Below the pieces are notes generated by a model. That model made no database searches and was not told the DNA's origin. It worked only from the letters and a program-made list of their open reading frames with translations. DNA of 64,000 nucleotides from Candidatus Heimdallarchaeota archaeon (GTDB lineage: Archaea > Asgardarchaeota > Heimdallarchaeia > Heimdallarchaeales > Heimdallarchaeaceae), in contig JABCTC010000010.1 of the NCBI GenBank assembly GCA_018238545.1, positions 1 through 64,000 on the forward strand, written 5' to 3'. Both the position numbers and the translations under genes were made by a program. Every line of letters begins with the position of its first letter. Within the stretch, counting starts at the first letter, position 1. Shown in pieces: positions 4,454-50,038 of the stretch.

Positions 4454-7400
4454 ATGTCTAAAAATATGTCAAAATTATTATCAATTTTTATAGTTACATT
4501 ATTCGTCAGTTCACTAATCTATTTTGAACCTTCATTAAATAACGAAAATATAACTGATTCAGTATTTCCTAATGAACCTATTCTTCCAGACAATGATAAT
4601 GAATCTGATGAAAATATAAATGACGAGGATGATAGTGGAACAACTCCTATAAAGAAGTTAGAAATTCCCGGAGACTACAAATCTTTCGCTTTTTTCAGTG
4701 GCGGCGGAACAGAACAAGGACTAGAACTAATCGCTGATCCAGAAGGGGAAGAGCAAATCTACTGGGGTGATTCAAGAGAAAATGTTATCGTATGGGAAAC
4801 ATATGATGATATCAAAGATGATGCTTATTTGGCTAAGGAACTATACTGGAGAGCACTAAGTACAGCATCTCATACTTGGCCTACTCAAGCAAATGTATGG
4901 TTTCATATGCACGAACAAAATTACCCTGATGAACCTTCAAAAATGTTCAGTCCAGTTTTCTCTGAAGATTGGTATATAAGTGGAAGAGTACATTATTTAA
5001 CTTATCTTGAAACGTCAACTTTTTCTGAATCAATAACAATAGGTGTAAGATTAAGTGTTCACCTTTTCAACCCAGCTGATCAAAGCACCTCCTTAATTAC
5101 ATCAACAACATTTACCGTTCCAATATCTTATGCTATGACTCAAAGGACCTTTTCTTCTGACATAGCTTCACCAGTATTAATTCCTGCTGGCTATAGGTTA
5201 AAGTATGACATTGAGTTAAGATTTAGCAGTATCCCTACTACTGGTTCTGTACTAATGTTCACTGGATATCCTGTTGGTGGAGGAGGATCGATGACTTGGA
5301 ATATAGTCGATGGGATTTATTCCAACAGTTATACTTTATTAAACAGAACTAGGATGTCAGGTGTTCAGTTGTACATGAGGAAAGATGTTTATCCCGATAT
5401 ACAGATTTTCAATGCTGTAAATGAGACAGTATATTCTTCAGCTAGAGATATAACAATTGATGTAACAGATGGTTCAACAAGTAGTTTTAGATGGAATGGG
5501 AATCCTGTCTGGACTCCATTTGACAATGATACTTTAACTTCATTGCCTTTAGTACATGGATGGAATACTTTAGAAGTGAAAGCAAGCGATCCAATTTACA
5601 ATAACACGATAGTAGAGCTTTATCAGTTTGGTTATGATGAATCTCCAGTTAATGTTGTTTTAGATAATGCTATAAATAACTCAGTTATAGCTGGTGATTA
5701 TGATCTCCAGTTCAGCGTCTATAATATAACCTCTGCAAAGTATAGGTGGGATGGTAGTGGCCCTCAAATAGATTTCAATTCACCTTATAATATTACGGCA
5801 GATAATTTTGAAGGCTTACATGATTTAAGAATCATTACAACTGATTTCTATACTGAGGAGTCATATTATTACAAGTTCACTTTTGATTCTACGGCACCTA
5901 CCATGATTTTACAATCACCAAGCAATAATACTTTACAAGCTCCAAGAAAATCAATTAATATAGATGTTAACGATTCATCAGGAGTTGACGTAGTTACTTA
6001 TCACTGGGATGCAGATGCGGAAGCACTGTTGAACCTTATTGGTGGTATTACCTATAGAACATTCTTACCCTCTGCAGGAGGGTGGCATGATCTGTATGTT
6101 ACTGCAAATGATACCCATGGAAATCAAGTAACTTCATATTATACTTTCTTTACAGATCCAACCATACTTAATGTAGAATTAAGATATATGATAGATGATT
6201 CATATTTTGTTGGTGGTAATGATGTCGAGGTTACAATAACTTCTTCAAATGATACAATAAAATATCAATGGGATAATGATGTTTTTTGGAAAGATAAACT
6301 TGACGCAGTTTGGGATGGTACATATCTTAAACTTACGAATGTAGAAGGATTGCCTTCAACTCTAGGTGTTCACATTTTAAAAATTCGAACAGGTGATCTT
6401 TCACATGTTGAACATATTTTTACTTTTAAATTCACAGTAGATCAGCAAGCACCAGAGTATGATATTTCTGTGTTCAATTATAGTAATTTAAGATATTTGG
6501 GGTCTGAAGCACTCACGTTTACTGTAACAGACAATTATACACTTTCAGCTGAAATCTTAATGGACATTTCAGTCGATGGAGGATTTAATCAATCTCTATT
6601 GTTTCCTTTCATGCTACCACTATTTTCATTCTTTGATGGTAACCATAGCATTGTGATATATGTTTGGGATGTTGCCGGTAATGTGAACGTGACAACAATA
6701 TATGTTATAGTTGATAACACAGCTCCATATATAGATTATCTTATCACAGAACTAGTCAATTATATTCATGTAGATGGCAATAGATATGTACCAGCAGATG
6801 CTCTAGTTGATGTCACACTAACAGATGCGGATTCAACTCTTTTCAGTTATTATTCAATCAATGGAACAGCATTTTTACCATTCATTTCCGATTTTAATCT
6901 AGGTTTTCTTGAAGGTTTTCTAGAAGTAACTGTAAGAGCAAATGATAGCTTAGGTAATCAATTTGATTTGCTTTTTAGTTTAATTCTTGATAATAGTCCT
7001 CCAACATTGAATCTCATCTTTCCATTTAACTATATTTCAGAAATAAATGACCTAACACCCTTGCAATTCAATACACAAGATCTTTCTGATAAAACAATCG
7101 ATTCAGTTGAATATGAATGGGATATCTTTCCAGGATTCACAGCAAATGCATATCCTGAAACAGATGGCGATTTCGAATTCAAACTGCTCTTATTTATACA
7201 AGATGCTTATGCACCAGGTAGTACTGCACAATTGACATTTTATCTTGAAGATATAGTTGGAAATATTGCTATAACTAAGTATAATTTTACTGTTGATAAA
7301 ACAAAACCAATTGATTCATTCTACATTTTTAATGAAACTATTCTAGACTATGAACACATTAGTCAGTTTTATTATGTACAAGGAAACACAGAAATTATTT

Positions 7401-9292
7401 ATGACAATACAGAAAATGATGATGTTCTTAAGCTGGAATATTATTGGGATGGAAACACATCAGAGGGAGCGGTTATAGTACTTCTGAATGGGACAAACCT
7501 ATTTCCGTGGTTCATAAATGTACCCACAATTGATGGAGAACACAATTTAACAATCAAGCTATATGATAATACAGGCGAAGATCAATATCCAAATATCAGA
7601 ACTGAAACTTATTTCTTAAAAGTCGATGATATAACGATTAACTATATTACACCCACTGATTTTTCAAACAACTACCATACAACAATCTTGTATGAGGAAA
7701 GTTTCAATTTTAGGATAAATGTTACAGATACTTTAGATGGGCAACCTCTTGATAATGTGAATATCTCTTATAACTACGATTCCACCTACAATCTCAGTTT
7801 TGAAATTGTCCAGATTGATAATATAACTTATGATTTTACAATAACGGCTTATAACGTAACAAATGGTTTAGAAACAGAAATTGAATTTTATATCTCTCAA
7901 TATGCTGACCATAAAGATATGATTGTTATACATCTTAGGGTTGATAAGAGAGAAGGGAATTTACTTGTCTTGCAAGGTGGTTATGATAGTCTTTACTATG
8001 ATAGTATAACCAATCTCACACTGCAATTGAATGATCATTTGAACATTTCTGCTCAAGAGATTCTAAGCATTACAGTAAATGGTACTGAAGTATCTTTTCT
8101 ATATTTTTCAGAAAATAAAACAGCAAGTATCTCTCTCTATATACCTGATTTTATTGATAAGCAAGGCAATTATACTTTCGAAATTTACGTAGAGTCCTCA
8201 GAATATTTTGATACAATGATTGATTCCTCTATTATTACTATAGATGTAAAACCAATGTTAGTTCTATTAGATGTATGGGTATTAAATTCAACAATTCTAG
8301 AAGGTAATCCTGTATCAATTATGGCAAATCTAACCTTAACGGATGGAACACCAGTAGCATTTGTGGAAATTTATTTTATAATTTATATCTACCTAAAAAC
8401 CAGTCCAGAACTTCCATCTACGGTTGTTCGACTATCTTTTGAGGATTCTGACTACAATGATACACAACATGCAGATACTGGATCTAATGGTTTGGCATTT
8501 TTATCTTATACTCTGAACTCCAACATTTCTTCAATCAAAATAGAAGCTGGATTTCTGGGTGATGACACACGGGATCAAACACAATTTACATTTGATGGCA
8601 TAGTGATTACATATCCACCTCCTGAAGCTGAAGAGCTCCCTGTCTGGCTATTAGCTTTAATAATAGGTGGAAGCATTTTAATTGCTGGAATCATCTCCTT
8701 CATTATTTACAAAGCTACACGACCTAAACCTTTCGAAGAATTAATGAAGAAAATAACTGATGAGGAAATAGTTCTAAATTATTCTATTCTCTCTCCTGGT
8801 ATTATGTTGTCAATATTTGATCAACGGAAAGGTCCGATTCCATTAGTAACTGATCATTCTTTGAGTGTTGGTCGATACTTGGGAAGAATGCAGATTGGAA
8901 TAGAAAATTTTCTACTTAAAATTGCAGATCAAGCTTATTCCAGCTTAGGTTTTGAGGAACATACCAATGAGAGGAGAGTTGGATCGATAGTACTACCTAG
9001 TGAGAAAATGATCGGATTTTTGCAAGGTATTCAACTAAAGAATCCTCAATCTCGAGGAGGTTTTGAGAATCTTTCTCTGATAGTTCTTGCTGATAGAGAA
9101 TATGGAAACCTACTTCTTAACTACCAAGAGTATCTTTATCCAAAAATAGATGAATTGGAAGTTGCACTCAAAGGTAAAGATACTCTGAAGAAAGTAGAAG
9201 AGTTGATGAAAGAAATCCGTAAGATATCTGTGATAATTGTCCTCGCTGCCCAAAAAGCTGAAAAAGCACAAGAAAACGGAAATAATTCATAA
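4454..9292 (+). CDS. Large single-pass membrane protein: signal/anchor, Ig-like beta-repeat ectodomain, TM helix, cytoplasmic uDENN/longin (folliculin-like) domain
   Basis: Hydrophobic N-terminus. Repeated 'Y.WD', 'G.H.L.....D..GN' and 'D.T.P' Ig-like motifs with many NxS/T sequons. TM LPVWLLALIIGGSILIAGIISFIIY at about 8636-8710, followed by LSIFDQRKGP and LKNPQSRGG. Confidence 0.8.
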   Translation: MSKNMSKLLSIFIVTLFVSSLIYFEPSLNNENITDSVFPNEPILPDNDNESDENINDEDDSGTTPIKKLEIPGDYKSFAFFSGGGTEQGLELIADPEGEEQIYWGDSRENVIVWETYDDIKDDAYLAKELYWRALSTASHTWPTQANVWFHMHEQNYPDEPSKMFSPVFSEDWYISGRVHYLTYLETSTFSESITIGVRLSVHLFNPADQSTSLITSTTFTVPISYAMTQRTFSSDIASPVLIPAGYRLKYDIELRFSSIPTTGSVLMFTGYPVGGGGSMTWNIVDGIYSNSYTLLNRTRMSGVQLYMRKDVYPDIQIFNAVNETVYSSARDITIDVTDGSTSSFRWNGNPVWTPFDNDTLTSLPLVHGWNTLEVKASDPIYNNTIVELYQFGYDESPVNVVLDNAINNSVIAGDYDLQFSVYNITSAKYRWDGSGPQIDFNSPYNITADNFEGLHDLRIITTDFYTEESYYYKFTFDSTAPTMILQSPSNNTLQAPRKSINIDVNDSSGVDVVTYHWDADAEALLNLIGGITYRTFLPSAGGWHDLYVTANDTHGNQVTSYYTFFTDPTILNVELRYMIDDSYFVGGNDVEVTITSSNDTIKYQWDNDVFWKDKLDAVWDGTYLKLTNVEGLPSTLGVHILKIRTGDLSHVEHIFTFKFTVDQQAPEYDISVFNYSNLRYLGSEALTFTVTDNYTLSAEILMDISVDGGFNQSLLFPFMLPLFSFFDGNHSIVIYVWDVAGNVNVTTIYVIVDNTAPYIDYLITELVNYIHVDGNRYVPADALVDVTLTDADSTLFSYYSINGTAFLPFISDFNLGFLEGFLEVTVRANDSLGNQFDLLFSLILDNSPPTLNLIFPFNYISEINDLTPLQFNTQDLSDKTIDSVEYEWDIFPGFTANAYPETDGDFEFKLLLFIQDAYAPGSTAQLTFYLEDIVGNIAITKYNFTVDKTKPIDSFYIFNETILDYEHISQFYYVQGNTEIIYDNTENDDVLKLEYYWDGNTSEGAVIVLLNGTNLFPWFINVPTIDGEHNLTIKLYDNTGEDQYPNIRTETYFLKVDDITINYITPTDFSNNYHTTILYEESFNFRINVTDTLDGQPLDNVNISYNYDSTYNLSFEIVQIDNITYDFTITAYNVTNGLETEIEFYISQYADHKDMIVIHLRVDKREGNLLVLQGGYDSLYYDSITNLTLQLNDHLNISAQEILSITVNGTEVSFLYFSENKTASISLYIPDFIDKQGNYTFEIYVESSEYFDTMIDSSIITIDVKPMLVLLDVWVLNSTILEGNPVSIMANLTLTDGTPVAFVEIYFIIYIYLKTSPELPSTVVRLSFEDSDYNDTQHADTGSNGLAFLSYTLNSNISSIKIEAGFLGDDTRDQTQFTFDGIVITYPPPEAEELPVWLLALIIGGSILIAGIISFIIYKATRPKPFEELMKKITDEEIVLNYSILSPGIMLSIFDQRKGPIPLVTDHSLSVGRYLGRMQIGIENFLLKIADQAYSSLGFEEHTNERRVGSIVLPSEKMIGFLQGIQLKNPQSRGGFENLSLIVLADREYGNLLLNYQEYLYPKIDELEVALKGKDTLKKVEELMKEIRKISVIIVLAAQKAEKAQENGNNS

Positions 9293-9392: not shown

Positions 9393-11123
9393 ATGTCATA
9401 CCTATTCGATGAAATATACGGCAAAAATGAAGAAGCTCCTGCTATCGAAGATAAGATTCTACTTATGGGTCTCCAAGCTGCAGGGAAAACCGCAATAAAA
9501 GACGTGGTTTTCTTCAATAAATCTCCAGAAGATATGGAAGATTACATGGCTACAGTACACTATCAACGTCATTTTATTGACGAAGAAAAATCAAGTATGG
9601 TTATTGATTCAGGTGGCCAAGAAAGTTATTGGAACGAAGCTGTAACACATTTTCGACATCTTGTATTTTCAAATGTCAAGTTACTTATGTGGATTGTTGA
9701 TGTCACTCATCCCGAGATGTTTGAAGAATCAGAAAGAAGATTCAGTTTTACAATACGACAATATAAAAAAGAAAACCCCAATGGAAAAATAACTGTATTG
9801 TGTCACAAAGTAGATCTTGTACCACCAGAGAGAATGGTAGTTATTCATCAACACATACGAGAATCATTTGATGATCCCCGTTTTGAAATAGATTATGAGA
9901 ATACAAGTATCTATTACGGAGAAAGTCTAAAGGAATTAGTTTTTACAATTATGGCTGAAGCTGGTATCGATACTAAACGATTTGAGTTAATTTCCAACTT
10001 AGGTCAGAAAGTGGAGGAAAGTGATGAGTTCCAAAGCTATCTTATGGAACATAAAGAAGATCCAAGAATTGAACAGCTTTTAGATTTTCTCAAACCTGAA
10101 GCTGATATTACATTACCCACATTTGGTAATTTAGATCTACAATTTGACTTAACAGAATATGGCATTGTAGAAATTGTTCTTATTGATAGGGACACATTTT
10201 CTCCTATAGTAGGTGCATCCTCTAAAACCGATGTTTCAACACAAAATTCAATGGATTATCTAATCGCTCTTCATGATTTCAAACGTTATGTTAAGGAGAA
10301 GAGTCAAGAGATTGAGCCCACGGGAACTATAGTTACATCATCAAATGAAAAAGTTCATGGAATGATTTTCAATCTTGCTAGTAATTTCTTACTTGTAACT
10401 TCTTTCTCTGAAATTACAGAAGAGAAAAAGAAAATGTTTTTTGAGCTTATACTCAAGTTTGCAAAATCAACTGCAGATTCAACTCAAGAAACTAAACCTG
10501 AACCAGCTCCTGTTGTTGTTCCAGAATCTGCACCAGTAACAGTTCCTTCAGTTCCTATTACTGAAGAAACAGTAACTGTTGATACTGAACCAATAGTTAT
10601 TGAAAAGACAGTGGAGGTTCCTCACATGGAGATAATAGAAACAGAGTTGGTTGTAGAAGAAGCTAATACTGTTGAACCAGAAATCATGTTACCACCCTCT
10701 CCATCTCCTGTTAAACTTGTTTCAGAGGAAACAGAAGGAGAGAAAGAACAAGTTAAATCAGAACCAATTGAAATAGAGCATATTGAAGAACCTGCTGAGA
10801 CACCAAAAATTCCTGTAGAATCAGAACCCACTATTGTCGAAGAAACTCTAGAAATTTTAACTGAGCCAACAACTCCATCAGTTCTAGAGTCCAATACTGT
10901 ATCAGATATTCTAGATTCAACTGAACCTGTAGCTACACTAAGTGGTATCGGAGATTCAAGTGCAATCAGTTTTTCAGCAGATGATATAAAGGACTTTGCT
11001 AATTTCTTAGTTAACAAGAAAGAAACAGTACTAGAAGAAATATCATTAGATGAGGTTAAAGGTATGTCTGACTTTCTGACAAAAGGATTAGTAGCTGAAG
11101 AAGATGATACAATTGAAGAATAA
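9393..11123 (+). CDS. Rag/Gtr1-family GTPase with roadblock/longin-like domain and acidic disordered tail
   Basis: KILLMGLQAAGKT, ATV, DSGGQ, HKVD and TSIY are Rag signatures (RagA: KVLLMGKSGSGKT, ATI, DCGGQ, HKMD, TSIW). E/P/T/V-rich C-terminal third. Confidence 0.9.
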   Translation: MSYLFDEIYGKNEEAPAIEDKILLMGLQAAGKTAIKDVVFFNKSPEDMEDYMATVHYQRHFIDEEKSSMVIDSGGQESYWNEAVTHFRHLVFSNVKLLMWIVDVTHPEMFEESERRFSFTIRQYKKENPNGKITVLCHKVDLVPPERMVVIHQHIRESFDDPRFEIDYENTSIYYGESLKELVFTIMAEAGIDTKRFELISNLGQKVEESDEFQSYLMEHKEDPRIEQLLDFLKPEADITLPTFGNLDLQFDLTEYGIVEIVLIDRDTFSPIVGASSKTDVSTQNSMDYLIALHDFKRYVKEKSQEIEPTGTIVTSSNEKVHGMIFNLASNFLLVTSFSEITEEKKKMFFELILKFAKSTADSTQETKPEPAPVVVPESAPVTVPSVPITEETVTVDTEPIVIEKTVEVPHMEIIETELVVEEANTVEPEIMLPPSPSPVKLVSEETEGEKEQVKSEPIEIEHIEEPAETPKIPVESEPTIVEETLEILTEPTTPSVLESNTVSDILDSTEPVATLSGIGDSSAISFSADDIKDFANFLVNKKETVLEEISLDEVKGMSDFLTKGLVAEEDDTIEE

Positions 11124-11211: not shown

Positions 11212-12441
11212 TTATACTGGTCGACTGTCACCATATCTTCTATATTCTAGTTGTGCATCTAGGAAGATTGGTATCTCTCGCATCTCTGTAACACATTCAT
11301 GAATAGGATAAATCTCAATAGATGTTGAACCAAATCCTTTCTGAACCTTAATCCCTCTTTCAAGTTGTTCAGAGTTTTCAACTGCCACATCAAGCATTGA
11401 TTTCTGCAGGTTTCTTCCACAAACATCGCACCTAAAACTAATTTTCTTGTCAACTCTTATTTCAACAACCTCGTCTTTAGGAATACTATTTTTTGCTAAA
11501 TAATTGATGAGAGTGTCTTTCATCTTGAGTTTAGCTCTTCCAAGAAGTTCGTCAGGTTGGAATAGTTGTTGCATCTCAACTGCTAAGGTATCGAAATATT
11601 CCTTTTCATTTACTATATCAGTTGCTGGAGGAAAAACGGTTGTTAATACTAAATCTTCATTTATTTCTTTCATATAGACTCTGTTTTCTTCAAAAGAAAA
11701 TATAACATGATCTAAAACTAAAGTTGGTGAAAACATTTTTGCAAGATCATTTTTCAATTTAATGAAATTATATCCAGCATACCTTTCAGGTTGAGAATAT
11801 AACATTAAACCTTGTGCTGTTGATAGCGCAATAAACACTAAATCTTGCTGTTGGAACTTTTCTTTAATTTTACTGGATTTACTGTCATCTTTTGGGTAAA
11901 CATAAGCTAATACTTGTTGCATTGCATCCCATATTGTATCTTCAAAAATTGATGTTCCAATGATTTCTGCGTTTGGGAAATCCTCAATTTCGAAAATCTC
12001 TTTAATTGATTGTAAAACCGATTCTCGTTTATTAGGTGGGACTACATCCATCTTATGTGCAAATACGTATATTCGTGCTTCTCCACTTATCTCTTTTGTA
12101 GATTTAACAGTAAGATCAAAATAGTATTTTGAACGCATGATATTTGATGCATCAGAGATATCAACAACAAAAATCAAAGCTTTTGCATCACTGAATGTTC
12201 TTTCTTTGTATTGATCAAAAACTTCGTTCAAGTAATTGCTCTGCCCGCCGACATCAAAAAGATTAATCGCACTACCTGCAAGATTAAACAATTTCCGGTT
12301 TATACGGACTGTGGCTGGGTTCATTGATGTTGCTTCGGGAGCAAATCCTTCAAAAACAACTTGGCGAATGGAGGTTTTCCCTGATTGAGATAAACCTAAA
12401 ACGACTATCTTCGATTCTAATTCACTAGTACCGCCGTACAT
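11212..12441 (-). CDS. Rag/Gtr1-family GTPase with roadblock-like domain and C-terminal Zn-binding domain
   Basis: GLSQSGKTS, ATV, DVGGQ, HKMD, TSIF; C-terminal CDVCG...HEC. Start moved to the ATG at 12441 (MYGGTSELESK), which follows a GTGAGG RBS-like sequence; the track ORF begins at 12510. Confidence 0.9.
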   Translation of the reverse strand: MYGGTSELESKIVVLGLSQSGKTSIRQVVFEGFAPEATSMNPATVRINRKLFNLAGSAINLFDVGGQSNYLNEVFDQYKERTFSDAKALIFVVDISDASNIMRSKYYFDLTVKSTKEISGEARIYVFAHKMDVVPPNKRESVLQSIKEIFEIEDFPNAEIIGTSIFEDTIWDAMQQVLAYVYPKDDSKSSKIKEKFQQQDLVFIALSTAQGLMLYSQPERYAGYNFIKLKNDLAKMFSPTLVLDHVIFSFEENRVYMKEINEDLVLTTVFPPATDIVNEKEYFDTLAVEMQQLFQPDELLGRAKLKMKDTLINYLAKNSIPKDEVVEIRVDKKISFRCDVCGRNLQKSMLDVAVENSEQLERGIKVQKGFGSTSIEIYPIHECVTEMREIPIFLDAQLEYRRYGDSRPV

Positions 12442-12851
12442 TATCCTCACAACTACAACGTTTTTTTTCTTATAAAAAATTAATGTTACTCCAAATAGTA
12501 TGTATTGCACTTCTTTATATACAATTTTTTCTAGATTAGAAAAATCAAACTATTATTCGAAATAAGAATTCGTGTTTATGATTCTTTAATTCTCAATGCA
12601 ATCTCATCCATTTGCCTTGTACTGGCATCTAGAACATTATTTTGGAGTTTGTATTAAGGAGATCTTATTAGAAGATATCTCTTCTTTCCGATTTATTTCT
12701 TTATTTCCCTAAGGACCTTCTTGTATCGGGCACCTTTTTAGTAGGTAACTAGCGTTGCATCATAATGAAACAGCGTATTTCAGAATAATCTTATTATTTT
12801 TTCAAATAACTTTATATTTCCATTTTTGATTGTACAATTTGAGTAGATTAC

Positions 12852-20732: not shown

Positions 20733-22148
20733 CTAACCTATTATCTCTATTAGTGGATATTTATCTTTGAATTTGACTACTTTTGGAAGGAAAGTTGCCC
20801 CTGTAGAGCTTTTCATACATTCTATATAATTTGTGTAATTAATTCTAGAGAATCTTATGATAATATCAGCTGTTGTTCTCAAACGTGCTAGAATCTCTCT
20901 GCTAATGGCATTATGGTTGATAAATGAAAAAGCGACAGCTCTTTTTTCTTTCACATTGAAAGATTGAAGAGCATAATATCTTAAGAAATCTGTCTCCGAG
21001 AGAATATTAACATCATCGGTTAAATCTCCATAAATTACAGAACTCTGTCCAGTTCTAGTGAAAGCTTCCATTAATTCAACTGTAACAGAAATCATGTCAT
21101 CAGTAGTCATCAGTTGGCTCATCTCTCTTGCTTCAACGGCTGTAACAGTTCTGTTGTATTTGTCAATAAAAACTAGATTACCTTCATTAAGATGGGAGGA
21201 TATGTCACATTCAACTCTATTGAATTCCTTCAATATCCTTGCTGAATGCATATGAACATTAGAATGGATAATTACTCCTCTGTTCTTTTTTAGTTGATGT
21301 AATAGTGTTGTTAGAAATAATGGAAAATAGTTTGTCTCTCCATCAATTTCAATAAGAATCACACTTCCTGCTGGTATCCCTCCTCCTAATAATTCGTCGA
21401 GTCTATCAATACCTGTCTTTTCTTCTTGGATATGGATAGTGGGAGGATTCTCTGATCGAAGAATCATTATACCTTCTTTGTTTATGATAAATCTGTTCTC
21501 AAAACTAATTGGTTGAGCTGATCTTAATTTAGGGACTGAAATTCTCTTAATAAGCTGATTATCTATAAGTTCGGTTCGTATTTTGATTACACCGTCAACT
21601 AGGAATTCCTCGAGTGTTGCATATTCCTCAGAAATTTGCGATTCAGCAGTAAGAATTAAAGCAGCATCCTCTTTAGTAATTTCTCTGATGAAATCCATAA
21701 ATCCGCTTCTAGCTGTTTTTTCAAATTCAAACTCTGCAATAAATGCAGAGATAGAATCAAATACAACAAGTTTTGCCTTAATTGATGCCATTTTAGCTTT
21801 GGTTCTTGCAATAATGGCTGATAAATCAAACTTATCCGTTTGGACAAGATTGACACCTTGGGGTTTAAGAGAAATTTTATCAACGACAAGAAGACCTTTT
21901 TTGATATAATCATCAAAATCCATCCCAAAGGATTTGACATAATCAATAATTTTTGAAGGGTCAACTTCTGTTGAAATGAAGAGCACAGGAATGTTTTGTT
22001 TAAGAGCACCCAAAGTCATGAAAAGTGACAAGACAGTTTTGCCTGCTCCAGCAGTTCCTTTTATGGCATAACATTGTCCAGTTCTTAATCCTCCATCAAT
22101 CATATTGTCTAATTCTTTTATCCCAGTTGAGATATTCATGATTCTCAA
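20733..22148 (-). CDS. Double-domain KaiC/RAD55-family ATPase
   Basis: STGIKELD...GG, Walker A GTAGAGKT, VVFDS, EEFLVDG and KLRS. The second domain starts KTGIDRLDELLGGG and has a degenerate P-loop. Confidence 0.9.
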   Translation of the reverse strand: MRIMNISTGIKELDNMIDGGLRTGQCYAIKGTAGAGKTVLSLFMTLGALKQNIPVLFISTEVDPSKIIDYVKSFGMDFDDYIKKGLLVVDKISLKPQGVNLVQTDKFDLSAIIARTKAKMASIKAKLVVFDSISAFIAEFEFEKTARSGFMDFIREITKEDAALILTAESQISEEYATLEEFLVDGVIKIRTELIDNQLIKRISVPKLRSAQPISFENRFIINKEGIMILRSENPPTIHIQEEKTGIDRLDELLGGGIPAGSVILIEIDGETNYFPLFLTTLLHQLKKNRGVIIHSNVHMHSARILKEFNRVECDISSHLNEGNLVFIDKYNRTVTAVEAREMSQLMTTDDMISVTVELMEAFTRTGQSSVIYGDLTDDVNILSETDFLRYYALQSFNVKEKRAVAFSFINHNAISREILARLRTTADIIIRFSRINYTNYIECMKSSTGATFLPKVVKFKDKYPLIEIIG

Positions 22149-26911: not shown

Positions 26912-27922
26912 ATGTCTTTCTATGAATTTCGAAAACGCATAATGGAAGAAAAAGCTAAACGAGAAAAACGAGGAAAAAAAACTCGGACAGAAGCAACATC
27001 TCAACAAGAATCAATTGTTGGAAGAAACAAATTTAGTGTAGCATTATTAGGGTTAGAAAGAGCTGGAAAAACATCGTTAGTTAAAAAATTATTAAAACAA
27101 GAAGATATTGTTGTTAGACCAACGTATGGTGTTAATCTAGAAAACTATCAATATCGAGATTTAAACTTTACTTGCTTTGATCTAGGAGGCCATCAGCCTT
27201 TCAGATTGAGCTTATGGAAAAAATTTATTGAGCGAGCCGATGCAGTAATTTACTTAGTAGATTCAGCTGATCATGTAAGATTTGATGAATCTAAGCAAAC
27301 TTTTTGGCATTATATTAATTTCGCAAAACAGAACGCTCCTGTATTATTCTTAGCGAACAAAAGTGATCTACCCAATTCAAAAGAATTATCTGAAATCAAT
27401 GAACATTTCGAACTAGATAAATTTTTAAGAAATCTCAGACCATTCAACATCAAAAAAGTTTCAGCTTTAACAGGTCAAGGAGTCTATGAAGCTTGGGATT
27501 GGATGGTGGACGTTCTATGCGGAGCAGCTCAGTGGAAGGTTAAGATAGGCGCTGCTGTTTTGACAGATATTTCAGGTAACATTATCTCTGAAGCTATTTT
27601 TGGTAACCCTAATGAGCAAGCTACTGTTGCAAACGATTTTAAGAAATTAAAAGAATTAACTAAAATGTTTGCAGTTGAAGCTAAGGAAAGTATTCAATCA
27701 ATAAAGCTAGAGAATTTATATAAAAAACACGTTAGTCATGTTAAACGTGGAGCGTATTGTCTTTCAGTAATGATCGACCCTATTGATCCTGTTACAAGAG
27801 CCCAACAGATTCAACTTCGAATTTTAGAAAATTTCAGTAGGAATCCTGCTGAAGTAAGTAAAGACTTAGGAGATGTCTTCGAAAGTAAGTTCCCACTTGA
27901 AGTAGAAGGAGGAAGACGGTAA
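26912..27922 (+). CDS. Arf/Sar1-like small GTPase fused to a C-terminal longin/roadblock-like domain
   Basis: GLERAGKT, PTYG, FDLGGH, NKSD and SALTG motifs; GGTGA RBS upstream. Confidence 0.9.
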   Translation: MSFYEFRKRIMEEKAKREKRGKKTRTEATSQQESIVGRNKFSVALLGLERAGKTSLVKKLLKQEDIVVRPTYGVNLENYQYRDLNFTCFDLGGHQPFRLSLWKKFIERADAVIYLVDSADHVRFDESKQTFWHYINFAKQNAPVLFLANKSDLPNSKELSEINEHFELDKFLRNLRPFNIKKVSALTGQGVYEAWDWMVDVLCGAAQWKVKIGAAVLTDISGNIISEAIFGNPNEQATVANDFKKLKELTKMFAVEAKESIQSIKLENLYKKHVSHVKRGAYCLSVMIDPIDPVTRAQQIQLRILENFSRNPAEVSKDLGDVFESKFPLEVEGGRR

Positions 27923-28912
27923 TTGAGTAATTATCTCTCGTTTATACGAGATAAGATGATGTCTGAGAAGAGTAGAAAAATCCCCCAAATTGTTATTCTT
28001 GGGCTAGAAGGTTCAGGAAAGTCAACCGTTCTTAATCGTCTTTTGTTTGGAACTATTGCTGAGGGACAACCTTCACAATCTACTTGTTTCGTTAATGTAA
28101 AATATGGTACGACCATTCTTTCAGTTATTGAAGCTAGTGAAGAAACAGCTCGTGAAAGTCCTTACTTCCAAGATATTCTTGGTGAGATAGATGGGGTTGT
28201 ATTCGTGATAAATTCTCAGTCACTTCGACATATAGAAGCCTCGTTTGAATATGTTTTTACCTTATTTGATAAAATCCCTCAAAAGACATCAATTCTTTTC
28301 CTTGCAAACAAAATAGACAAACCAGGTGCTGTTCCTTTTCCAGATTTACTTCAAGATCCAGCATTTCAAATAATTATGGACGATATCAATCGTTCTGTTT
28401 CAATTTATCCAATAAGTGCCAAAACCGGAGAGACTTTCTATACCGCTTTTGATTGGATTATTTCAAGAATGACAGGGAGGACACCTTTACGTGAAGATGT
28501 AACTCCAAAGAGAGTTATTATTCTTCAAGAAGGAGGAGTACCTGCATTTGATTATATCTTCGATGCTTCTGGCGAGGAGCATGATAGCACATTGCTTGGA
28601 GGATTGATTAGTGCATTAAATATAATGGCTACTACTATCTTTGAAAGCGAATCTGTGATGGATGTTGTAAAACTAGGCGCTATGAAGATGATTATACGAA
28701 AAGTAAGTGGATGGAGCATAGTATTATTCGTTGGTAGAGATGATAGTGAGTCTAAAGCACAATCTCTTGCCGAGGAGATTCTTCAAGCATTTATTGAAGA
28801 ACGGGATAGAGATCCGACTAAAGAAATGCCAAAACAAGTTAAATACGAAATTTTGCGCAAAATCCCTGAAATCGCGATTGCTTTAGATCAAGAACCAATA
28901 AAGGATGATTAA
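27923..28912 (+). CDS. Arf-like GTPase with degenerate G2/G3, fused to a longin-like domain
   Basis: GLEGSGKS, NKID and SAKTG are present; G3 is replaced by IEASEE. The C-terminal 'D..LLGGLISAL..M' segment is longin/roadblock-like. Confidence 0.8.
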   Translation: MSNYLSFIRDKMMSEKSRKIPQIVILGLEGSGKSTVLNRLLFGTIAEGQPSQSTCFVNVKYGTTILSVIEASEETARESPYFQDILGEIDGVVFVINSQSLRHIEASFEYVFTLFDKIPQKTSILFLANKIDKPGAVPFPDLLQDPAFQIIMDDINRSVSIYPISAKTGETFYTAFDWIISRMTGRTPLREDVTPKRVIILQEGGVPAFDYIFDASGEEHDSTLLGGLISALNIMATTIFESESVMDVVKLGAMKMIIRKVSGWSIVLFVGRDDSESKAQSLAEEILQAFIEERDRDPTKEMPKQVKYEILRKIPEIAIALDQEPIKDD

Positions 28913-28926
28913 AAGGAGAAAAATAA

Positions 28927-29697
28927 ATGATAAATCCAAATATTTCCAAAGAACCAACTTTGGTGTTCAGTATATTCAAAGATTATGGACCAGAAATATT
29001 ATTCAATAATTCTATATTAGATGAAAATACAGCTCTAACACTAGTTATGACAGGTATGACCCTTGTTGAAATGAACAAGCCTTCAATTGGCAGATTAGAT
29101 GGAAGTCAAAGACCAAAAATGCTTGGTCCCATACCTGTTCCAGATAATGAAACTTTGAAAGCTATAGCTATTCCGTTTGAAACTGAAATAACCTCATCTA
29201 CTGATGTGAGAATTGAGCAAGCAGGATACAGATTATGTGTCGCATATTTCTTATTTGAAGGCTCAGCTGTACGAGAAGTATTAGATAGTTATGGCCTAAT
29301 TATACCCTATTTCACATTAATTGCAAGAAGTCTTGGCACAGAAGCGAATATTAATCCTTCATCCATTAAACAGGTCTTCGTAAAAATGGTTGATATGTTC
29401 TCTGGAAAAATCCCCAGGATCTATGGTGTTAATCAAGATAATTCTCTGAAAGAAATGATAGGCAAAAGATTAGAATACGCAGATACATACCTTCTTTGTG
29501 ATTTGCACAAAAATGAGATGTACATACTTTTGTATAATCCTTCAATGGATGTGTGGAGAAGAAGAGAGATCTACAAAGTGGCGTCCGAGTTAAATTCTAA
29601 TATGTTCAAGAGTTCTATGAGAATAAAAACAGTTGAAGATGTTAAGGAAATGGTGAGGATTTTAGACATTCTTAACATAGAAATATCTCCCGTATAA
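28927..29697 (+). CDS. uDENN/longin-like domain fused to a gelsolin-like domain (putative)
   Basis: N-terminal LVFSIFKDYGP..., GPIPVP and TDVR; C-terminal DTYLLCD...EMYI.......RRREIYKVASELN resembles a gelsolin repeat. Confidence 0.5.
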   Translation: MINPNISKEPTLVFSIFKDYGPEILFNNSILDENTALTLVMTGMTLVEMNKPSIGRLDGSQRPKMLGPIPVPDNETLKAIAIPFETEITSSTDVRIEQAGYRLCVAYFLFEGSAVREVLDSYGLIIPYFTLIARSLGTEANINPSSIKQVFVKMVDMFSGKIPRIYGVNQDNSLKEMIGKRLEYADTYLLCDLHKNEMYILLYNPSMDVWRRREIYKVASELNSNMFKSSMRIKTVEDVKEMVRILDILNIEISPV

Positions 29698-32126: not shown

Positions 32127-33629
32127 ATGACTGAACAAGAAGAAAAAAGAGTAAGAGATTTTGGATTAGTCTTCTACTTATGGGCTCTTTTAGCTCTTGC
32201 GGCATTGGCTTTAGGGGTTATTGCTATCGTAGAATTTGTCAGAAAAGACATCGGTTTTATAGATTATGCAATTGCTTTCATAGCTGATATAGATATCTCA
32301 ACAGTTCCAGGGCTAGTTCCAGATTTAAACGCAATAAAATACTGGATACTAGGCGGTGTTGCTGCTTTGTTCCTAATTGGAATTTCGCTAGCATATCTAG
32401 AAATTTGGATTATGAGCTTTATTGGTGCTGAATTTGTTAGTGCAGTTGTATTTGGTATTCCTCTAGCAATCTTAGGTGGAGGTATATATTGTATTATAGA
32501 TTTAAAACCGATTTGGATAGGAATTGGTATAGTCGCCTTAGCTGCTATGCTTATAATGGTGATACTTCTAGTTTCAAGAAGAATAGTTCTTGGAGCTAAG
32601 ATATTCGAAACAAGCTGTGAGGCAGTAAATGAAAATAAACGTACGTTGATTCCCATTCTGATTTTTGCTGTTGCATCAATTATCACATTCATTCTTGGAG
32701 CAGCAACAAGTGTGTGGGTCATAAACCTATCTTGGTTGAATGATCAAGAAACATGGGTTCAATGGTTAGTATTATTCCTTGTTATCTATGTGTATCTGGC
32801 AATTTACTGGACAACAATGTACTTCCTCGATGCTATCAACATTTGTATGTTCAAAAGATGGAATAATTACAAAGACGCCAGTATTCGTTATGCTATGAAG
32901 GAAGTTTGGAAAGTGAAAGGAAGTATAGTAATGTTTGGTATGTTCATGGCTTTCTTTGATTGGATTGTAAAAATAGTTCAATACTTTGGAGCGAAGAAAA
33001 TCAAAGAAACTTCAAAATTCTATAAAGCTTTTACTATCATTAAAAAGGTACTTTACTGGGTATTTATCCTATTCGTACTGCTCTTCAAATGGTTGTTCAA
33101 GATTATTAAATTCCTGAACTATTACACTTTAACAATTATAGTTGTAGAGAAACAAGGCTTCATTCGAAGTATTGCTAGATCTTCCGATTTAGCTTTAGAT
33201 TCTGGTGCAGATATCATCATAGGAAAAACTGGTGTAAATATTGCTAAAGGATTATTCTCAGTGATGACCTTTGCTATATTTGTTGTTGCAGGTTTCTTTG
33301 TTGGACGATATTGGTTCGGTATTTCAATCTCAGTTTCAACTGATTTTGGGGTTTTAGCTCTATTTGGAGTAGTTGTAGCAGTGTTCTTCTTCATCTTTGG
33401 TTATTTGCCAATGTCTGCATTGCTCAAACCACTAAATACAGCATATCAAACTATCCTATTCTTTTACATCACAGATCCATTCAGAGGAAAACCAGGACGC
33501 AAAACAAGGTTGTCAACTGATGTTCAAGAAAGCATATCAAAAGTCAGAGAAAACATCATGGAAAGTTACGATAAAGAAGAGAGAACCTCATGGTCATCAG
33601 ACAAGAAAGAACAACCAGCTGAGGTTTAG
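32127..33629 (+). CDS. Multi-pass membrane protein, choline transporter-like (CTL/SLC44) family (putative)
   Basis: About 9-10 TM segments; GSIVMFG and IIKFLNYYTLTIIVVEKQGFIRS resemble CTL family segments. Confidence 0.55.
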   Translation: MTEQEEKRVRDFGLVFYLWALLALAALALGVIAIVEFVRKDIGFIDYAIAFIADIDISTVPGLVPDLNAIKYWILGGVAALFLIGISLAYLEIWIMSFIGAEFVSAVVFGIPLAILGGGIYCIIDLKPIWIGIGIVALAAMLIMVILLVSRRIVLGAKIFETSCEAVNENKRTLIPILIFAVASIITFILGAATSVWVINLSWLNDQETWVQWLVLFLVIYVYLAIYWTTMYFLDAINICMFKRWNNYKDASIRYAMKEVWKVKGSIVMFGMFMAFFDWIVKIVQYFGAKKIKETSKFYKAFTIIKKVLYWVFILFVLLFKWLFKIIKFLNYYTLTIIVVEKQGFIRSIARSSDLALDSGADIIIGKTGVNIAKGLFSVMTFAIFVVAGFFVGRYWFGISISVSTDFGVLALFGVVVAVFFFIFGYLPMSALLKPLNTAYQTILFFYITDPFRGKPGRKTRLSTDVQESISKVRENIMESYDKEERTSWSSDKKEQPAEV

Positions 33630-49120: not shown

Positions 49121-50038
49121 TTACAATTTTTTCTTTGGTAAATGGTCGCTCAACAGTGCATTCAATTCTGTTGTCAAATCCTTATGTTCATCTTTCAGAT
49201 ACTCATGTAACACTATAGAAAGTCTACGGGCTTCTGGTAATGCTTCTTCTCGATCTACAGCGATGAGCACAACATGGTCATCAATCTCCGAAATAAAGAA
49301 ATGGTTTTCATCAACTTTCAGAACTTTAAACCGCTCATGCCCTAGAATCTCGTTTGCAAATCCGCTCAAAGCTTTAATGTAACCTACAAACATCCCTGTG
49401 TCTTGTGCAATTTCATCAGGGTCATGAATGTATAATGGGTTTCCAAAAATGTCAGAGATGATGAGTGCCTTGAATTTCTTAAATTGAAGTTCCCTAAAAC
49501 GTTTAATCTTTGAAGTAAACCATTTAAAAGCAAGCTCAATATTTTCTTCATTTCTTACTGATATTTTGAAGAATTGGAAAGAAATATTTGGATATGAAGA
49601 CATTTCATCCAGTTTCATGTCACTAATTATTTTATCAAGACTAAGAGCTGTTTTCAGATCAGATTTATTAGCAAGAAAAAGGATGGCTTTATCTGAATAA
49701 GATTCACCTAACCATTCTTTCACTATTTTCCAGTACCAAGTGGAAGCTTCTTCTAATTTTGAAGTATCAGAAGAATCAATAACAAAAATAATGCCCATGG
49801 ATGTTAGCACATTGGATTCCCACATATTCTCTCGAGAAGATTCTTGCCCTGATATATCGTAAATATTGAAAAGTATATTGCCTATCTTTATGTTTTCAAC
49901 AACCATTCCAACAGTAGGTTTAGGGCGAGTAAATCGTTTATTCTTAAACCAGTTGACAAGTGTTGTTTTTCCAGCATATTGAAGCCCAACAATTACGATT
50001 GGCACTGTATCTTGTTCATACCGAAATAGGTTCTCCAT
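49121..50038 (-). CDS. Arf-family small GTPase fused to a C-terminal longin/roadblock-like domain
   Basis: GLQYAGKTT, PTVG, YDISGQ, NKSD and ISV motifs; C-terminal GNPLY...GMF.GYIKAL..FA. Confidence 0.9.
   Translation of the reverse strand: MENLFRYEQDTVPIVIVGLQYAGKTTLVNWFKNKRFTRPKPTVGMVVENIKIGNILFNIYDISGQESSRENMWESNVLTSMGIIFVIDSSDTSKLEEASTWYWKIVKEWLGESYSDKAILFLANKSDLKTALSLDKIISDMKLDEMSSYPNISFQFFKISVRNEENIELAFKWFTSKIKRFRELQFKKFKALIISDIFGNPLYIHDPDEIAQDTGMFVGYIKALSGFANEILGHERFKVLKVDENHFFISEIDDHVVLIAVDREEALPEARRLSIVLHEYLKDEHKDLTTELNALLSDHLPKKKL

Follow-up and report, generated by a model that had tools for sequence, protein, structure and literature searches.

An operon of Heimdallarchaeaceae encoding an Arf-related GTPase, a degenerate paralog and a longin–gelsolin protein that may be its GTPase-activating protein

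Three adjacent genes in a genome assembly of a Heimdallarchaeota archaeon (GenBank GCA_018238545.1, contig JABCTC010000010.1, positions 1 to 64,000; this whole stretch of 64,000 nucleotides is 'the window' below) encode an Arf-related GTPase with a C-terminal longin (gene 1), a degenerate GTPase paralog (gene 2) and a protein made of a longin and a gelsolin-type domain (gene 3). The Heimdallarchaeia are archaea close to the ancestor of eukaryotes. [quoted passage not shown] An earlier note on this DNA had cast the third gene as a regulator, and this is its likeliest function given its longin class, its Gly-Pro (GP) motif and a conserved arginine, Arg95.

The longin–gelsolin protein and its candidate arginine finger

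The genes are co-oriented, with gaps of 0 and 14 nucleotides; the tight operon described in the earlier note is borne out by the open reading frame (ORF) coordinates and by the gene order kept among relatives. The genes and the features of gene 3 are:

26912..27922, + strand: gene 1, ORF of 336 amino acids, ATG start
27923..28912, + strand: gene 2, ORF of 329 amino acids, TTG start
28927..29697, + strand: gene 3, ORF of 256 amino acids, ATG start
28948..29406, + strand: gene 3 longin, residues 8-160, FLCN/Lst4/C9orf72/NPRL2 class by VIA
28987..28992, + strand: Gly21-Pro22, the GP motif, where strand 2 begins (strand 21-27 in the model)
29203..29211, + strand: Asp93-x-Arg95 (D93-V-R95), candidate arginine finger in the b4-b5 loop
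29407..29682, + strand: gelsolin-type domain, residues 161-252, by profile match and VIA

A structural model of gene 3, built with 74 homologs (predicted local distance difference test score, pLDDT, 85.8), contained both of the folds anticipated earlier, a longin (residues 8-160) and a gelsolin fold (161-252). In VIA structure comparisons the longin matched a Loki longin (8yqg, Z 12.7), Lst4 (11.7; FLCN/Lst4 range 11.2-11.8), FLCN (11.2-11.4), C9orf72-SMCR8 (10.4) and GATOR1 (9.5-9.9), with a root-mean-square deviation (rmsd) from GAP-longin chains of 2.7-3.4 Å over 125-137 residues; TRAPP (8.6), AP-5 (8.5) and DENND10 (7.3) scored lower. As modelled, the longin ranks with FLCN, Lst4, C9orf72-SMCR8 and GATOR1, above TRAPP, adaptin and DENND10. 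A comparison by features in the ESM Atlas gave NPR2 for gene 3 (19% cluster, 0.84), a weak lead.

A GP motif before strand 2 together with an arginine finger marks the GAP longins SMCR8, FLCN and NPRL2, occurs also in longins of Heimdallarchaeia, and is reported absent, as to the GP motif, from TRAPP, adaptin and DENND longins (PMC12290439). Within the gene 3 family G21 is kept in 74/74 and P22 in 73/74 sequences, and gene 3 itself also has F17 ahead of them. The 'uDENN-type start' of the earlier note therefore holds as F17..G21-P22 plus a longin fold, but not as a DENN module: no cDENN or dDENN lobes follow, residues 161-252 being the gelsolin fold and the protein ending at 256. Full DENN-module membership was rejected on that ground.

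The DVR loop that had been pointed out is present as D93-V-R95. Asp93 is conserved in 72/74 and Arg95 in 70/74 family members, and Arg95 is invariant (54/54) in operon-linked homologs of two distant subfamilies. Because the gene 3 longin profile alone found no match to FLCN or SMCR8 in the PDB, we bridged through other Asgard longins, namely Asgard proteins above the Pfam Folliculin cut-off, which carry DxxxRG (DxxARG). Their profile placed the DxxARG arginine on FLCN Arg164 (E 0.02) and SMCR8 Arg147 (E 0.49; alignment starts of 152 and 128 give these residue numbers), and it matched the gene 3 family over the whole domain (hhalign 79%, E 1.5e-5), GP on GP.

The gelsolin-type domain is closest, by profile and by structure, to the single-domain gelsolins ProGel/1DGelX of Thorarchaeota (PMC7444086): against Thor ProGel (7c2f) the profile E value was 1.2e-4 and the VIA Z 10.5 (rmsd 2.7 Å, 85/88 residues). 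It differs from them in sitting behind a longin and in lacking W-x-G of the gelsolin DWG motif (PMC7444086), with Asp192 kept and W-x-G replaced by L-Y-N-P. Thor ProGel binds actin weakly (dissociation constant about 340 uM; PMC7444086), and gene 3 may bind actin too. Sec23 (2nup_A, Z 7.6 over 89 residues) scored below ProGel and the gelsolins. Arg244, by the end of the range the residue nearest to the Sec23 finger position (numbering of human Sec23A), is Arg in 22/28 Heimdallarchaeaceae and 0/10 members of another order; with such poor conservation, the Sec23-type GAP arginine suggested earlier for this domain finds no conserved counterpart, and no link to a coat was found either. Arg164, Trp210 and Arg213 are invariant in 38 orthologs linked to Arf-type GTPases and changed in Rag-linked homologs, with W210-R-x-R213 at the start of the domain's long helix; they may form a clade-specific binding surface or, less probably, serve in catalysis. 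Arg95 is a better catalytic candidate than a Sec23-type arginine in the gelsolin domain, being kept in 54/54 sequences as against 22/28 and 0/10 for Arg244.

The GTPase pair

Three further features belong to genes 1 and 2:

27542..27901, + strand: C-terminal longin of gene 1, about residues 211-330, by AlphaFold2 model and VIA
27908..27912, + strand: GGAGG, the ribosome-binding site of gene 2, lying within the final codons of gene 1
about 28490-28852, + strand: C-terminal longin-like domain of gene 2, by homology to the gene 1 C-domain

Judged by its motifs, gene 1 is an intact Arf-related GTPase. Pfam Arf matched at E 1e-39 (136 bits, against 28 for Ras and 25 for Gtr1_RagA), and G1 (GLERAGKT), G2 (Thr71), G3 (DLGGH, His94), G4 (NKSD) and G5 (SA) are all in place, their residues, Thr71 and His94 included, being invariant in 32 orthologs (His94 32/32). 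The best 60 PDB matches were Arf1-6, Arl1/3, other Arf-like proteins and archaeal Arf structures, with E values of 1e-25 to 1e-26 for the HodArfR1/GerdArfR1-type structures 8ouk-8oun; no Sar1 chain was among these 60. The earlier label 'Sar1-like' had the G3 histidine as its sole basis. That residue is not diagnostic of Sar1, because four other, unrelated GTPase-longin paralogs of the same genome also have DxGGH, and a Sar1 assignment of gene 1 is not supported. The nearest Hodarchaeales relatives have DLGGQ in G3.

Folded alone with AlphaFold2 (pLDDT 81), the gene 1 C-domain showed a SNARE/adaptin-type topology (b1-b2, helix, b3-b5, two to three helices) without a GP motif. It had been called 'longin/roadblock-like'; the longin half of that description stands, with VAMP7 (Z 12.4), Sec22 (11.2), AP-3 sigma and sedlin all at Z 10-12.4, and the roadblock half falls, roadblocks and Rag C-domains reaching 7.6-9.1. 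Foldseek listed longins and roadblocks without separating the groups. A weak ESM Atlas lead to Gtr1_RagA (0.79, by features) was overruled by the fold search.

At its N-terminus gene 1 has a short helix and then a 25-residue charged linker, without Gly2. The N-terminal helices of both GTPases, described earlier as amphipathic, are so by moment (best 11-mer 0.56 in gene 1 and 0.47 in gene 2) but not beyond shuffles of their own 18 residues (p 0.19 and p 0.36). The pair may bind membranes. One gene 1 ortholog (genome G016, locus L072) is split into two ORFs, by assembly error or inactivation.

Gene 2 matched Pfam Arf at E 1.3e-17 and keeps G1 (GxxxxGKS/T) and G4 (NK in 36/36, D in 32/36). It has lost the G2 threonine, and its G3 has changed from DxxGH to EASEE in Heimdallarchaeaceae or DxGKE in the family of the other order. 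Its motifs suggest a protein that probably binds nucleotide yet is unable to undergo the normal switch. The C-domain is a longin by homology to that of gene 1 (hhalign 94.5%, E 8e-8). Pfam, motifs and longin fold or homology thus agree with the earlier picture of an intact and a degenerate Arf-like GTPase, each with a C-terminal longin. The two may form a heterodimer. In a complex prediction (gene 1 residues 36-336, gene 2 residues 14-322, GTP and gene 3 as partner) the score was 0.54 and the control 0.45, which gives no verdict either way.

The TAA stop of gene 1 abuts the TTG start of gene 2, whose N-terminus is the same in close orthologs; this layout and the ribosome-binding site suggest that the two may be translationally coupled. 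A sigma-70 promoter and terminator scan of the locus gave hits at chance level, such a scan being unsuited to archaea. Three sequencing runs of RNA from one sample showed, at a small share, short contigs from relatives that cover portions of each of the three genes; we did not take this as transcription.

Conservation and a Rag-type counterpart

The close homologs that carry names belong to Heimdallarchaeaceae, among them Ca. Heimdallarchaeum endolithica, in which genes 1-3 have the accessions UJG44708.1 to UJG44710.1. Orthologs of gene 2 turned up in 28/29 other Heimdallarchaeaceae genomes and in 10/12 genomes of a family in another order, and the order 1-2-3 was kept in every long-enough locus fetched from both groups, with gaps of -11 to 18 nucleotides in the former and 93-171 in the latter. 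In the other order, identity falls to 30-41%, all flanking genes differ and a Rab-like GTPase gene lies downstream. The gene order is not due to chance. In a G-domain tree, gene 1 orthologs (support 95/91) and gene 2 orthologs (99/98) each joined across the two orders, and a Rag-type clade (98/97) left out both genes. This tree did not resolve the deeper splits between gene 1, gene 2 and the remaining Arf-like paralogs, so a direct tandem duplication giving genes 1 and 2 is unsupported. Gene 3 homologs occur in 57/60 related genomes and are rare outside the class.

A paralog of gene 3 is present in 20/22 Hodarchaeales genomes. In all 16 loci fetched (L049, L062, L065, L132-L139 and L142-L146; two cut by contig ends and one with an internal stop) the order was a Rag-type GTPase, a degenerate Rag-type gene, the gene 3 paralog and another Rag-type GTPase; the P-loop of the degenerate gene ends in GKD (for example, at L049:3512-7350). 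A gene 3 relative from another class (L130) lies directly before a Rag-type gene. As the Rag-linked clade (100/99) stands apart from the Arf-linked clade (100/99), which joins orthologs of both orders, in the gene 3 tree, the arrangement 'intact GTPase, degenerate GTPase, GP-longin-gelsolin' is seen two times, each with its own class of GTPase. The internal stop, a TAA in genome G060 (L144), reflects an assembly error or inactivation.

The host genome, which has about 40 small GTPases and three actin-family genes, holds another GTPase-flanked longin. At C6:15780-18995 a protein of 438 amino acids with a PAS domain and a GP/DxR longin lies between Arf-like GTPases of 299 and 323 amino acids; among 3072 non-GTPase genes, its gene alone has a co-oriented small GTPase on either side, and 1.2% of genes in this genome have one such neighbour. 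A binomial test of the repeated linkage gave P of about 0.016 for 2/16, a rough guide given the crude gene set. This locus adjoins genes for PAS and response-regulator proteins, with another GTPase pair at C6:29908-31762, and suggests sensory control of a similar module.

Other loci gave observations of their own. In family f4 (L042-L044) the gene 3 homolog is followed by a stand-alone longin of 200 amino acids (Fuz/Mon1/HPS1 first longin, E 1e-4) that could serve as a partner subunit. In Hodarchaeales (L108-L117, L207; G073:C439, G060:C238, G046:C277, G058:C6, G050:C189, G070:C1, G048:C2 and G067:C1) the single gene 1 relative, with DLGGQ, lies 5-6 kb from a Pfam-Folliculin gene of 430-460 amino acids with DxxARG, with eIF-2B-family and Nre genes between; the proximity may be incidental.

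Unrelated genes flank the operon: upstream one of the BacA family, downstream one for a GNAT protein on the other strand. Elsewhere in the window are:

4454-9292: Ig-like surface protein of 1612 amino acids, adjoining the convergent pair that follows
9393-11123 (+) and 11212-12510 (-): convergent pair of Gtr1/RagA-family GTPases, each with a long extension at the C-terminus
20733-22148 (-): KaiC-like protein containing a pair of RecA-type domains
32127-33629 (+): choline transporter-like (CTL, PF04515) membrane protein, of a family mostly known from eukaryotes; the gene stays near the operon in several Heimdallarchaeaceae members
49121-50038 (-): a further Arf-like GTPase with a C-terminal longin-like domain and DISGQ in G3

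Proposed mechanism, alternatives and relation to known systems

In the mechanism we propose, the operon would encode a self-contained switch with gene 1 as the switching GTPase and gene 2 as a non-switching sister, probably nucleotide-bound, that serves as a scaffold through its longin. The gene 3 longin would cup the switch regions of GTP-bound gene 1 and insert Arg95, on the model of SMCR8 Arg147 into ARF1 and FLCN Arg164 into RagC; in the SMCR8–ARF1 complex the switch regions are enclosed by a pair of longins, one of which supplies the arginine (PMC8213707). Such GAPs need a second longin, which gene 2 could provide; alternatively, a further copy of gene 3 could do so on a dimer of the gene 1 and gene 2 longins. 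The likeliest task of the gelsolin domain would be to place the module on actin or an acidic surface. The fuller version of this scheme, a pre-eukaryotic Arf-GAP module in which an FLCN/SMCR8-type longin turns off an Arf-related GTPase held by a pseudo-GTPase and couples it to actin by the fused gelsolin domain, with a paralogous Rag GAP in Hodarchaeales, is tentative, and we think it rather doubtful as a whole.

Several observations weigh against a GAP role. Pfam scans of gene 3 and its alignments gave no match, Folliculin and NPR2 included, and nothing in this genome matched Pfam Folliculin. Compared with FLCN-type longins, the b4-b5 loop has 5 extra residues, and in the hhalign alignment Arg95 stands two columns ahead of the finger arginine, so the equivalence to the FLCN/SMCR8 finger is one of loop and not of exact register. 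Between the two orders the gelsolin domain is better conserved (46%) than the longin (38%), and it may carry the main function. Most gene 3 homolog lineages (Kariarchaeaceae-like f3, f4, other f5/f6 copies and f9) have no adjacent GTPase, and in Hodarchaeales the gene 1 relative lacks genes 2 and 3 as neighbours. Guanine-nucleotide exchange factors (GEFs) are the commoner kind of longin pair (PMC12290439), and SMCR8-stimulated hydrolysis requires the catalytic Gln of ARF1 (10.1101/2020.04.15.042515). At the position of that Gln, gene 1 has His. Both Sar1 and SRbeta function with His.

The same histidine enters two other explanations. Gene 3 could be an effector or adaptor whose longin binds GTP-bound gene 1 while the gelsolin domain anchors both GTPases to actin, with no stimulation of hydrolysis; a parallel would be SRalpha, whose SRX longin binds the His-type GTPase SRbeta, and slow hydrolysis, as the G3 His suggests, would suit it, as would the likeness to the actin binder Thor ProGel (PMC7444086), the invariant W210-R-x-R213 and the actin-family genes in the genome. 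We consider this unlikely, since a GP motif together with the invariant Arg95 characterises GAP longins, the DWG motif lacks its W-x-G and the actin binding of ProGel itself is weak. Should gene 3 instead be a Sec23-type GAP, its gelsolin domain would supply the catalytic arginine to match the gene 1 His, as Sec23 supplies Arg722 (PMC5889017). The structural match to 2nup_A and the place of Arg244 speak for such a role, as does the invariance of Arg164 and Arg213 in Arf-linked orthologs; the spread of Arg244, the loss of Arg164 and Arg213 in Rag-linked homologs, the higher scores of ProGel and the gelsolins and the need of Sar1 binding for the Sec23 trunk and helical domains (PMC11914678), which gene 3 lacks, make it improbable.

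We give equally little credence to an exchange-factor role, in which the longins of genes 3 and 2 would load gene 1 with GTP in the manner of Mon1-Ccz1, TRAPP or DENN proteins. Exchange is the more typical longin function (PMC12290439), TRAPP, Mon1-Ccz1 and DENND10 longins matched gene 3 at Z 7-8.6, and Liu et al. suggested GEF function for a different Asgard DENN operon; GAP-type longins nonetheless scored higher, and the GP motif is the one reported absent from TRAPP, adaptin and DENND longins. It is also improbable that the genes are co-expressed while gene 3 acts on another GTPase of the cell, or that the trio makes up no single module. Gene 3 homologs mostly have no GTPase neighbours outside f1, f6 and one f5 copy, and the f6 locus adds the downstream Rab-like GTPase, yet the Heimdallarchaeaceae gaps are short, the order persists between orders in spite of changed flanks, and an independent second operon pairs the family with Rag-type GTPases.

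The GAP proposal rests on comparison with the eukaryotic longin GAPs, C9orf72-SMCR8 for ARF, FLCN-FNIP/Lst7-Lst4 for RagC/Gtr2 and GATOR1 NPRL2-NPRL3 for RagA. Gene 3 resembles these in its longin (Z 9.5-11.8), the GP before strand 2, the b4-b5 arginine and the link to Arf- or Rag-type GTPases, here by gene neighbourhood. It differs in having a gelsolin domain instead of DENN lobes, a loop longer by 5 residues and DxR where they have DxxARG, and the operon has no separate partner-longin gene, its other longins being fused to GTPases. By fold and motifs, the N-domain belongs with the GP-motif, arginine-finger longins of Heimdallarchaeia (PMC12290439) and the NPRL2-like Asgard longins (10.1101/2020.10.19.343400); those papers, in the text that was searched, name no GTPase partner and mention neither a gelsolin fusion nor this operon.

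Gene 1 is like Asgard ArfR/AArf (10.1101/2024.02.28.582541; PMC11914678) in its Arf-type G domain and its N-terminal helix without Gly2; genes 1 and 2 differ from these in the C-terminal longin fusion, His for Gln and the tandem degenerate paralog. As side-by-side paralogs with C-terminal dimerisation-type domains, the two recall Rag/Gtr heterodimers and the Rag-like operon pair of MK-D1 (PMC10933270), but they lie outside the Rag clade, carry longins and not roadblocks, and include one partner without G2 and G3. Rag/Gtr membership was rejected, given a Rag clade of its own (98/97) that excludes both, Pfam scores favouring Arf and the lack of a roadblock. With Sar1-Sec23 of COPII the operon shares a G3 His in the GTPase and a gelsolin-type domain in the putative regulator; it shows neither Sar1-specific similarity, by the 60 best PDB matches, nor a conserved Arg at the Sec23 position. 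Sec23 membership of gene 3, a two-domain protein of 256 amino acids without zinc finger, trunk, beta-barrel or helical domains, was likewise rejected.

The building blocks are already published: Asgard ArfR, GTPase-longin fusions, the MK-D1 Rag-like pair, GP-motif longins and single-domain gelsolins. No description of the operon, the longin-gelsolin fusion or the parallel Rag operon appeared in the literature searched, most subscription papers and some supplements lying outside that search. The native regulators of Asgard Arf proteins are described as unidentified (PMC11914678), whether GP-motif longins partner ArfR or Rag GTPases has been posed as a question (PMC12290439), and in MK-D1 the order of genes does little to pair GTPases with their GAPs (PMC10933270).

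Between them, the operon and the corresponding Hodarchaeales locus supply two groups of small soluble proteins, Arf-type in one case and Rag-type in the other, with which the stated question of the GTPase partner becomes testable, and they single out one residue, Arg95. If the gelsolin domain does link to actin, a membrane-type GTPase switch would be tied to the archaeal cytoskeleton. If gene 3 has GAP activity, arginine-finger longin GAPs would have acted before eukaryotes; and if the fuller scheme holds, the split among longin GAPs between Arf (SMCR8) and Rag (FLCN/NPRL2) would already have been present among archaeal paralogs.

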